Shown one piece after another: positions 5,049-56,626 of a stretch of 64,000 bases of DNA. Made by a program: the position numbers and the translations under genes. The notes beneath the pieces were generated by a model. The model was not told where the DNA came from and made no database searches. It saw only the letters and a program-made list of their open reading frames with translations. How positions within the stretch are numbered: the first letter of the stretch is position 1; every line of letters begins with the position of its first letter. The DNA lies in the IMG/VR virus record IMGVR_UViG_3300046457_000175, positions 32,001-96,000 of that record, one strand, 5' to 3'. The DNA comes from a virus.

Positions 5049-5091
5049 TTGCTTTTCCTATTTGCATTCGAGCAAAAGGTCAAGCAAATGT

Positions 5092-46925: not shown

Positions 46926-47108
46926 TCATTGCCGCACCTCGGCGCTCTTGTCGGCCATGTCGTGGGCGACCAGCAGCAGGTCCGCGATCAGGTCGTGCAG
47001 CTCGGCGCGGGTCATGCTCGGTGCCGGCTTGAACGTGATGCCGACCGTCGACTTCCCGTGGTCCGGTCTGTGGTAGATCGTGTGGTCGAAGAACTTGGAG
47101 ACCGTCAT
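46926..47108 (-). CDS. hypothetical protein
   Basis: GGAG RBS after the box at 47136. Confidence 0.55.
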   Translation of the reverse strand: MTVSKFFDHTIYHRPDHGKSTVGITFKPAPSMTRAELHDLIADLLLVAHDMADKSAEVRQ

Positions 47109-47200
47109 GGTCGACTCCGTTTGCGTTTGCGCTGTTTGCATTCAAGCAAGGACAAAGGCAAGCGCAAATTGCCATGTCCGTAGAACTGCGGATGATGAGA

Positions 47201-47296
47201 TGGCTGCACGAGTGGGCCTCGAACCCACCCCTTTAGTGAAATAATTTCACGTCCACCGGGTCTGCCGGTGCGCTCTACCAGCTGAGCTACCGTGCA
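47201..47296 (-). tRNA. atypical class-II-like tRNA (nominal anticodon AGA, Ser-like) or tRNA mimic
   Basis: acceptor TGCACGG/TCGTGCA + G + CCA; D arm GCTC-AGCTGGTA-GAGC; stem CACCG/CGGTG with loop GCAGACC; 25-nt variable region; T arm GTGGG-TTCGAGG-CCCAC. Confidence 0.75.
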
Positions 47297-47324
47297 GCCA
47301 TCACGCCATCCAAGGGGGCAACCC

Positions 47325-47353
47325 CTTGATTTCCATTTGCATTTGTGCTATAG
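47325..47353 (+). promoter_or_regulatory. rhizobial-type sigma70 promoter
   Basis: CTTGAT-17bp-CTATAG matches the rhizobial consensus CTTGAC-N17-CTATAT. Confidence 0.6.
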
Positions 47354-47361
47354 AAAAGCCA

Positions 47362-47481
47362 ATGGATATCCCGTCTCCGGCCCAGATCGCGGGCCTTCTT
47401 GCCGCCCTCAGCGCCGCCATTTTCGCAGCGCATCTGGTACAGGCATACCGCGACATCAGGGTCGGGGAAATTCCAGAATAA
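47362..47481 (+). CDS. 39-aa single-TM peptide, probably leaderless
   Basis: MDIPSPAQIAGLLAALSAAIFAAHLVQAYRDIRVGEIPE; ATG 8 nt after the -10 box. Confidence 0.5.
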   Translation: MDIPSPAQIAGLLAALSAAIFAAHLVQAYRDIRVGEIPE

Positions 47482-47746
47482 TTCCCGGAATATTGGCCGC
47501 CGGGGGATTTATCGGTCCCGGTTTTCGAATTTCGAAGGCCGCCTCCAGCTCGACGATCGTGGCTTCGATCACGTCGACCGAGACACGGGGGGAGAAGAGG
47601 ACCGAGAACGACTCGGCCAGGATCGCCGCCTGCTTCACGGTCAGGCCGGTACGCCCCTGATGGGCGGCATAGAGGACCCTTAGCCGGTCCCGAGCGTTCC
47701 CGGGCCGCATGGCCAGAGTGACGCCAAACCCTACAAATCCAGACAT
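47456..47746 (-). CDS. hypothetical protein
   Basis: GGAGGAG RBS. Confidence 0.5.
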   Translation of the reverse strand: MSGFVGFGVTLAMRPGNARDRLRVLYAAHQGRTGLTVKQAAILAESFSVLFSPRVSVDVIEATIVELEAAFEIRKPGPINPPAANIPGIILEFPRP

Positions 47747-56550: not shown

Positions 56551-56626
56551 GCTGGGGTAGCTCAGATGGTAGAGCGCCGGATTTCCAATCCGTTGGTCGT
56601 GGGTTCGAACCCCACCCCTCGCTCCA
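56551..56626 (+). tRNA. tRNA-Gly (anticodon TCC)
   Basis: 76 nt cloverleaf, loop TT-TCC-AA, GGTTCGAA T loop, U73, encoded CCA. Confidence 0.92.

Follow-up and report, generated by a model that had tools for sequence, protein, structure and literature searches.

A tRNA-shaped element with an aberrant anticodon loop, possibly a non-decoding tRNA mimic, in a relative of Bradyrhizobium phage BDU-MI-1

The window analyzed here, a stretch of 64,000 nt, comprises bases 32001–96000 of a 119,289-bp IMG/VR virus record (98% complete); of all deposited phages, only Bradyrhizobium phage BDU-MI-1 is related to it. Genes from ~14 to 86 kb run leftward and include those for a class II ribonucleotide reductase, a protein with a YqaJ-like recombinase domain, a primase-helicase and a UvrD helicase. 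The tRNA-shaped element under study, termed type A hereafter, is located among small leftward genes of unassigned family in this early leftward region, whereas five ordinary tRNAs (Gly, Met, Trp, Cys, and Asn) are called by ARAGORN on the opposite strand, within a rightward block. Genes neighboring type A yielded no match to known families, and neither Ro60/TROVE nor any tRNA-repair or tRNA-end enzyme (CCA-adding enzyme, RtcB, RNA ligase) was detected in the phage. The locus was compared with BDU-MI-1 and with two further viral genomes, G001 (IMGVR_UViG_2524023228_000003) and G403 (IMGVR_UViG_2927464213_000002), at the “slot”, defined as the interval between homologues of the upstream 96-aa gene and of the downstream regulatory block. 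In leftward order, the locus holds the following features:

47456–47746, minus strand: upstream 96-aa gene, used as synteny anchor; homologues precede the slot in G001 and G403
47335–47362, minus strand: promoter/operator-like motif 5′ of the RNA, with a −35-like hexamer at 47362–47357 and a GCAAAT box at 47340–47335
47311–47328, minus strand: 5′ hairpin of 7 bp with a 4-nt loop at the predicted transcript start; counterparts in G001 (similar sequence) and G403 (different sequence)
47297–47311, minus strand: leader strand of an outer helix, pairing with G73, CCA, and trailer
47201–47296, minus strand: tRNA-shaped body, type A, called by ARAGORN; fold z-score −5.3, Rfam tRNA model negative
47190–47204, minus strand: trailer strand of the outer helix (G73, CCA, and 11 more bases), pairing with the leader
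47150–47179, minus strand: two-part terminator-like hairpin 3′ of the RNA, its tail only moderately U-rich
47134–47161, minus strand: second promoter/operator-like motif, before the next gene, conserved in G001 and G403
46926–47108, minus strand: downstream 60-aa gene; homologues (four found) with 85–95% identity, neither Pfam nor PHROG matching

On the plus strand between the upstream gene and the RNA (47362–47481), there is a potential hydrophobic ORF of 39 aa that may not be a gene; the shorter spacer of G001 lacks it.

ARAGORN folds the minus strand from 47296 to 47201 into a 96-nt cloverleaf labeled tRNA-Ser(aga). Its arms as delimited by the program, together with the 3′ end, are:

47296–47290 paired with 47211–47205, minus strand: acceptor stem
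47287–47272, minus strand: D arm
47270–47254, minus strand: hairpin 1, the pseudo-anticodon arm
47250–47236, minus strand: hairpin 2, inside the variable region
47228–47212, minus strand: T arm
47204, minus strand: G73
47203–47201, minus strand: encoded CCA

The cloverleaf is real, beyond chance: the minimum free energy of its fold has a z-score of −5.3 with 0 of 200 shuffles folding equally well, and a second fold z-score obtained for the element is −4.7. All 22 cloverleaf stem pairs form, as do all 6 in hairpin 2, and just one of them is a G·U. Acceptor stem (7 bp), D stem (4 bp), and T stem (5 bp) have the canonical tRNA lengths, the acceptor branch is the normal 7/5, and the elbow nucleotides U8, A14, G18 G19, and the T-loop consensus are present as a full set. 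With its 4-bp stem and 8-nt loop, the D arm is of the class-I type, a form it has in common with the phage tRNA-Gly and many host tRNAs, and not of the class-II type seen in Ser, Leu or Tyr tRNAs. The closest match to the type A D and T arms is found in the phage tRNA-Gly(TCC), with 18/19 and 15/17 identical positions, respectively, and the anticodon-stem CCGG is common to both genes. This tRNA-Gly(TCC), at window positions 56551–56626, itself carries a U3·C70 mismatch in the acceptor stem.

Departures from a canonical tRNA are found in the anticodon and variable regions. The 7-nt loop of hairpin 1 has C33 and C37 in place of U33 and a purine at position 37, and no alternative register provides a loop with both. 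Positions 32 and 38 are G and C, and their pairing, according to the energy model, extends the stem to 6 bp and leaves a loop of 5 nt. The variable region spans 25 nt and contains a palindromic, AT-rich hairpin of 6 bp with a 3-nt loop, flanked by unpaired bases, 3 of them 5′ and 7 of them 3′ of the hairpin. ARAGORN and direct reading of the sequence thus bear out the structural part of a preliminary description of this locus, namely a 96-nt cloverleaf with intact D, T, and acceptor arms, U1-A72, G73, and encoded CCA, a loop without U33 and with a pyrimidine at 37 that can close, and a long variable region with a palindromic hairpin.

Unlike the true tRNAs of the phage, type A is enclosed in an outer helix, which the preliminary description did not mention. 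One strand is the 5′ leader, the other G73, CCA, and the trailer; past the acceptor stem they form 6 contiguous Watson–Crick pairs (chance ~2e-4) and, after two mismatches, 7 more pairs, so that including the acceptor stem a helix of ~20 bp is capped by the tRNA-like body. Each of the five true tRNAs has at most 2 contiguous leader/trailer pairs, making the helix unique to type A among the six tRNA-type genes. As the leader pairs with the CCA, the encoded 3′ end would not be free in the predicted primary transcript. Upstream, a copy of the motif TTGSNT-N15-18-GCAAAB ends 7 bases before the 7-bp hairpin, which directly precedes the leader; a second copy stands after the two-part terminator-like hairpin. 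The genome contains 9 copies of this motif vs about 1 expected, and it is likewise enriched in two relatives, G001 and BDU-MI-1 (8 vs 1 and 11 vs 1 expected). Many copies are accompanied by a repeated ATGCAAA and most lie 5′ of leftward genes; further ones in the window are found at 5062–5087, 17405, and elsewhere. The motif is partly palindromic and may therefore be an operator instead of a promoter, or both. The upstream motif block of the type A gene is 91% conserved in G001, where the terminator-like hairpin has different letters, with stems that are still complementary. Judged by their order, these flanking signals suggest a separate, predicted transcript of about 180 nt.

Can such an RNA read codons? 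In class II tRNA-Ser the long variable arm leaves the core with at most 1–2 unpaired bases, and the D arm is of the class-II type. Type A has the G73 discriminator of that class, but its hairpin is flanked by 3 + 7 unpaired bases and its D arm is class I. Codon usage gives no hint of need either: across 126 predicted phage genes, only 7.9% of Ser codons are TCT, and there is therefore no evident demand for a tRNA-Ser(AGA). The loop, the class-I body, the placement of the hairpin, and codon usage therefore make “Ser” a formal reading of three mid-loop bases. An identity as decoding tRNA-Ser(AGA), the exotic working tRNA envisaged in the preliminary description, is not supported. Comparison with tRNA models, also proposed there, gives a divided answer: ARAGORN calls the cloverleaf, but the Rfam tRNA covariance model RF00005 (gathering threshold 29 bits) failed to detect type A in both the window and a whole-genome search. 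The latter did find all five ordinary tRNAs, four of them at 46–66 bits and tRNA-Trp at 21.7 bits, below threshold.

Several further identities were considered and rejected. The best Rfam match of type A is tRNA-Sec (RF01852, a family with an 8/5 fold and a UCA anticodon), which scores 22 bits against a gathering score of 47 (E = 0.088), and type A has no UCA anticodon. An intron-interrupted tRNA is contradicted by ARAGORN, which returns the identical structure when introns are allowed. Allo-tRNAs have an 8/4 or 9/3 branch, and shifting the 7/5 branch of type A to 8/4 creates a U·C mismatch. ARAGORN found no tmRNA in its tmRNA mode, and pair 3-70 is C-G, not the G3·U70 of tmRNAs, which also contain a tag reading frame. 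For YrlA and other Y RNAs, whose genes neighbor that of Ro60, there is no TROVE/Ro60 match in the phage, no Rfam match of the RNA, and type A ends at its acceptor. A peptide-coding, tRNA-like mRNA of the xtpA kind is not apparent, as AUG-started frames in the predicted transcript have just 2 and 4 codons. Neither type A hairpin recurs in the genome, arguing against a repeated protein-binding hairpin.

Comparison of the slot between relatives revealed that its content is variable. No tRNA-like element is present in the slot of BDU-MI-1, which is empty, and the cassette is therefore dispensable. In G001, the slot contains a different element, termed type B, in which a 7-bp acceptor stem is joined to a consensus T arm, and the same type B element occupies the slot of G403, a 122-kb genome classed as provirus with 100% completeness; accordingly, the BDU-MI-1-like group may include temperate members. 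ARAGORN needs lowered thresholds to call type B of G001; for the G403 copy its default thresholds suffice once introns are permitted, and the program reads it as a tRNA-Gly(gcc) whose canonical loop is split by an insert of 21 nt. This insert precedes the anticodon loop and is accompanied by a long extra region in both copies (L008:3378-3492 in G001; L245, G403:50564-50674). Type A was absent from G001, G403, and BDU-MI-1, and type B from the genome of the window. Type B lacks both an encoded CCA and a helix between leader and trailer, and the two types thus need not mature or act alike.

The two type B copies are 96.4% identical (107/111), and one of their four differences turns an A·A mismatch in the insert-bearing stem into a U-A pair. 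Their flanks have diverged to 51% identity over 100 upstream bases, the level of shuffled sequence, and to 65% over 100 downstream bases, and the remaining 3-kb neighborhood is either unalignable or 73–85% identical. Type B is therefore an island of conservation, maintained by selection or spread by recent exchange of exactly that cassette; the latter could, in place of selection, account for such sharp conservation. The cassette of G403 is located at 50.5 kb of 122 kb and not at a genome end. In BDU-MI-1, ~380 nt without annotated gene and with several hairpins lie 5′ of the gene preceding the empty slot (L001:4880-5270, minus strand).

Exact-pattern scans and a T-arm plus 3′-acceptor pattern found no copy of type A in the viral, metagenome or genome collections, and the stop-to-stop frame spanning the RNA, used as a protein query, retrieved no variant contigs. 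Alignment of the downstream protein likewise returned nothing from the metagenome or viral contig collections, and the pseudo-anticodon hairpin pattern gave three chance matches in coding DNA. Type A is nevertheless present in at least three other rhizosphere metagenome runs, on contigs with 0 or 1 difference across the gene; recovery of the same sequence from other runs means that it is not a sequencing or assembly error, a possibility raised at the outset. A diverged metagenome lineage, present in three runs, carries among its listed differences one well-supported change inside the RNA, at 47211, converting G7·U66 to G7-C66 and thereby improving the stem, and on one contig its similarity stops 3 bases 5′ of the 5′ end of the RNA. 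The listed changes in this lineage may weakly favor selection. On one metagenome contig 47291 is fused to 47526, and a lineage in which the 5′ end and promoter are deleted may therefore exist. Look-alikes were also encountered. A viral scan for class-I D arms with 36–66 extra bases gave more than 119 matches, nearly all of them intron-type tRNAs on giant-virus contigs and not relatives. A few IMG/VR contigs from that scan (L026, L040, L099, L119, and L124) differ from these in having high GC content and class-I bodies with hairpin inserts or aberrant anticodon arms. A Bradyrhizobium genome contains a partial tRNA cluster (L233, G058:C55:38678-41700, at ~1440–1700) with two 3′ ends and a truncated 5′ half, which resembles an integration hot spot and whose parts ARAGORN fuses into a 90-nt “tRNA-Asn”.

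We weighed several explanations for type A against each other. A recently disabled tRNA, perhaps a copy of tRNA-Gly that became functionless when a small part of its anticodon loop was deleted and a palindrome was inserted into its variable loop, would account for the aberrant loop, the negative Rfam result, and the likeness of D arm (18/19), T arm (15/17), and CCGG to the phage tRNA-Gly(TCC). Absence of the cassette from BDU-MI-1, lack of distant relatives, and the contig that may hold a 5′-truncated copy fit such a pseudogene as well. Yet there is no decay outside the anticodon and variable regions, every stem pair and tertiary nucleotide being intact, the two abnormal parts each form a perfect hairpin, pairing between leader and trailer is a gain and not a loss, the known variant improves a stem, and the analogous RNA of the relatives is the best-conserved segment of its neighborhood. 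A relative with a normal loop, which the preliminary description had linked to a decaying pseudo-tRNA, was not found at the type A gene. On balance, we consider a pseudogene unlikely, but a serious contender. A cis-acting processing or stability element, with an RNase P/RNase Z (or RNase III) site setting the ends of early mRNAs and no role in trans, is improbable. Both cassette types do retain just what RNase P/Z minimally require, a T arm with the acceptor stem stacked onto it, the interrupted helix of ~20 bp resembles a processing stem, and the neighboring genes are all on the same strand. However, the RNA lies between a promoter/operator-like motif and a terminator-like hairpin, with a second motif after it, so that no read-through transcript would need to be processed, and the conservation of the D arm and the type B interior exceeds what a cutting signal needs.

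Two other explanations lose more ground to the evidence. A DNA-level element, either an attP core copying part of a host tRNA or a mobile cassette with a 12-bp inverted repeat, is suggested by a slot that holds unrelated cassettes or nothing, by similarity that breaks exactly at the 5′ border of the RNA, and by the provirus classification of G403. An attP copy of the 3′ half of a host tRNA is disfavored, as that half had no exact match among genomes of 185,579 species and in 401 Bradyrhizobium genomes BLAST aligned no more of type A than ~23 bases from its D arm. The cassette of the G403 provirus is internal, neither the hairpins nor the inverted repeat have another copy in the genome, and 7 of the 12 repeat pairs are merely the acceptor stem, leaving a DNA-level role very improbable. 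Scarcely tenable, finally, is a genuine charged tRNA-Ser(AGA) or other adaptor that translates and resists anticodon nucleases. The ARAGORN label, the encoded CCA, and the long extra hairpin speak for it, as do G73, G2-C71, and C11-G24, which are shared with the identity elements of E. coli tRNA-Ser; it is opposed by a loop without U33 or purine 37 that closes to 5 nt, by the class-I D arm and the distant hairpin, and by a CCA buried in a helix, the rarity of TCT, and the negative Rfam result.

We tentatively favor, at somewhat below even confidence, the explanation that type A is a non-decoding tRNA mimic with predicted early expression. Decay would be expected to hit everywhere, yet the odd parts are perfect helices, a helix has been added, and type B is conserved, which favors a mimic. 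Type A has no distant relative, so selection is deduced from type B and from the one structure-improving change. The gene would have arisen from a class-I tRNA and encode a small RNA with a transcript of its own, in which the parts of the L-shape and the acceptor/T-arm minihelix are kept and codon reading is lost. Its RNA may be made early in infection from its own promoter, with the 5′ hairpin probably protective, and would engage its recognizer via the acceptor/T/D half while taking no part in decoding. Candidate recognizers are host or phage factors that read tRNA shape, such as RNase P, CCA-adding or modification enzymes, or a tRNA-directed defense or toxin; as a counterpoint, no partner protein is encoded nearby. 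Types A and B might represent alternative versions of one accessory function that is missing from BDU-MI-1. The mimic or decoy suggested in the preliminary description is compatible with all findings and gains from the conserved, different RNA in the slot of the relatives, whereas a decoy of RelA or of anticodon nucleases, also named there, is hard to reconcile with the missing anticodon loop.

A broader proposal, which we put forward as speculative and rather doubtful, is that BDU-MI-1-like Bradyrhizobium phages have a dedicated early-region slot for interchangeable, independently transcribed, non-decoding tRNA-shaped RNAs that serve to decoy or hijack a host factor recognizing tRNA shape, for example a tRNA-directed defense toxin. 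If true, slot RNAs would constitute a new class of phage counter-defense RNA with variants tracking host strains. A slot with two unrelated tRNA-shaped cassettes had no prior description in the literature searched. Odd phage tRNA calls are usually dismissed as pseudogenes or named by their mid-loop bases; for type A the label “tRNA-Ser(AGA)” would be wrong, and the relatives demonstrate that a tRNA-shaped RNA at this slot can be the best-conserved segment of its neighborhood. Should the RNAs be mimics, two natural variants and a natural empty site would offer a simple system for the benefit that an anticodon-less tRNA body brings to a phage.

Type B shares with type A the slot and its two neighboring genes; both are preceded by a 5′ hairpin and followed by one resembling a terminator, and each has an acceptor stem of 7 bp and a T arm that fits the consensus. 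The two are unrelated in sequence, and type B is tRNA-Gly(GCC)-like and lacks CCA and outer helix. Phage-encoded tRNAs with altered anticodon loops have been proposed to escape host anticodon nucleases; these retain U33 and R37 in a loop of 7 nt and remain able to decode. Type A resembles them in being carried by a large phage that also has ordinary tRNAs, and in its full cloverleaf and encoded CCA, but differs in its 5-nt loop, extra hairpin, and buried CCA, and in its separate early-region site on the opposite strand. Plant-mitochondrial t-elements and mascRNA-type signals combine a degenerate anticodon region with a preserved acceptor/T half and are parts of longer transcripts. The acceptor/T half of type A is likewise preserved, so that RNase P/Z could recognize it; in contrast, type A appears to have promoter-like and terminator-like signals of its own, and its D arm is complete.

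Allo-tRNAs reportedly keep a functional anticodon loop. Their cloverleaves are non-canonical, with an 8/4 or 9/3 acceptor branch (PMC5389517), and similar to type A they are tRNA-shaped RNAs with long extra arms in bacteria and their phages that are missed by standard models (PMC5389517). The branch of type A is 7/5, and an 8/4 reading breaks pairs. YrlA and bacterial Y RNAs are non-decoding Ro60 partners that mimic tRNA and occur also in phages (PMC4201824), and, like type A, YrlA has D and T arms resembling those of tRNA as well as an acceptor-like stem. In YrlA that stem is closed by a loop (PMC4201824), whereas type A ends at its acceptor. Of the systems compared, YrlA and t-elements, as tRNA mimics, may come closest to type A in the way it works, with an ordinary cloverleaf topology as its scaffold.
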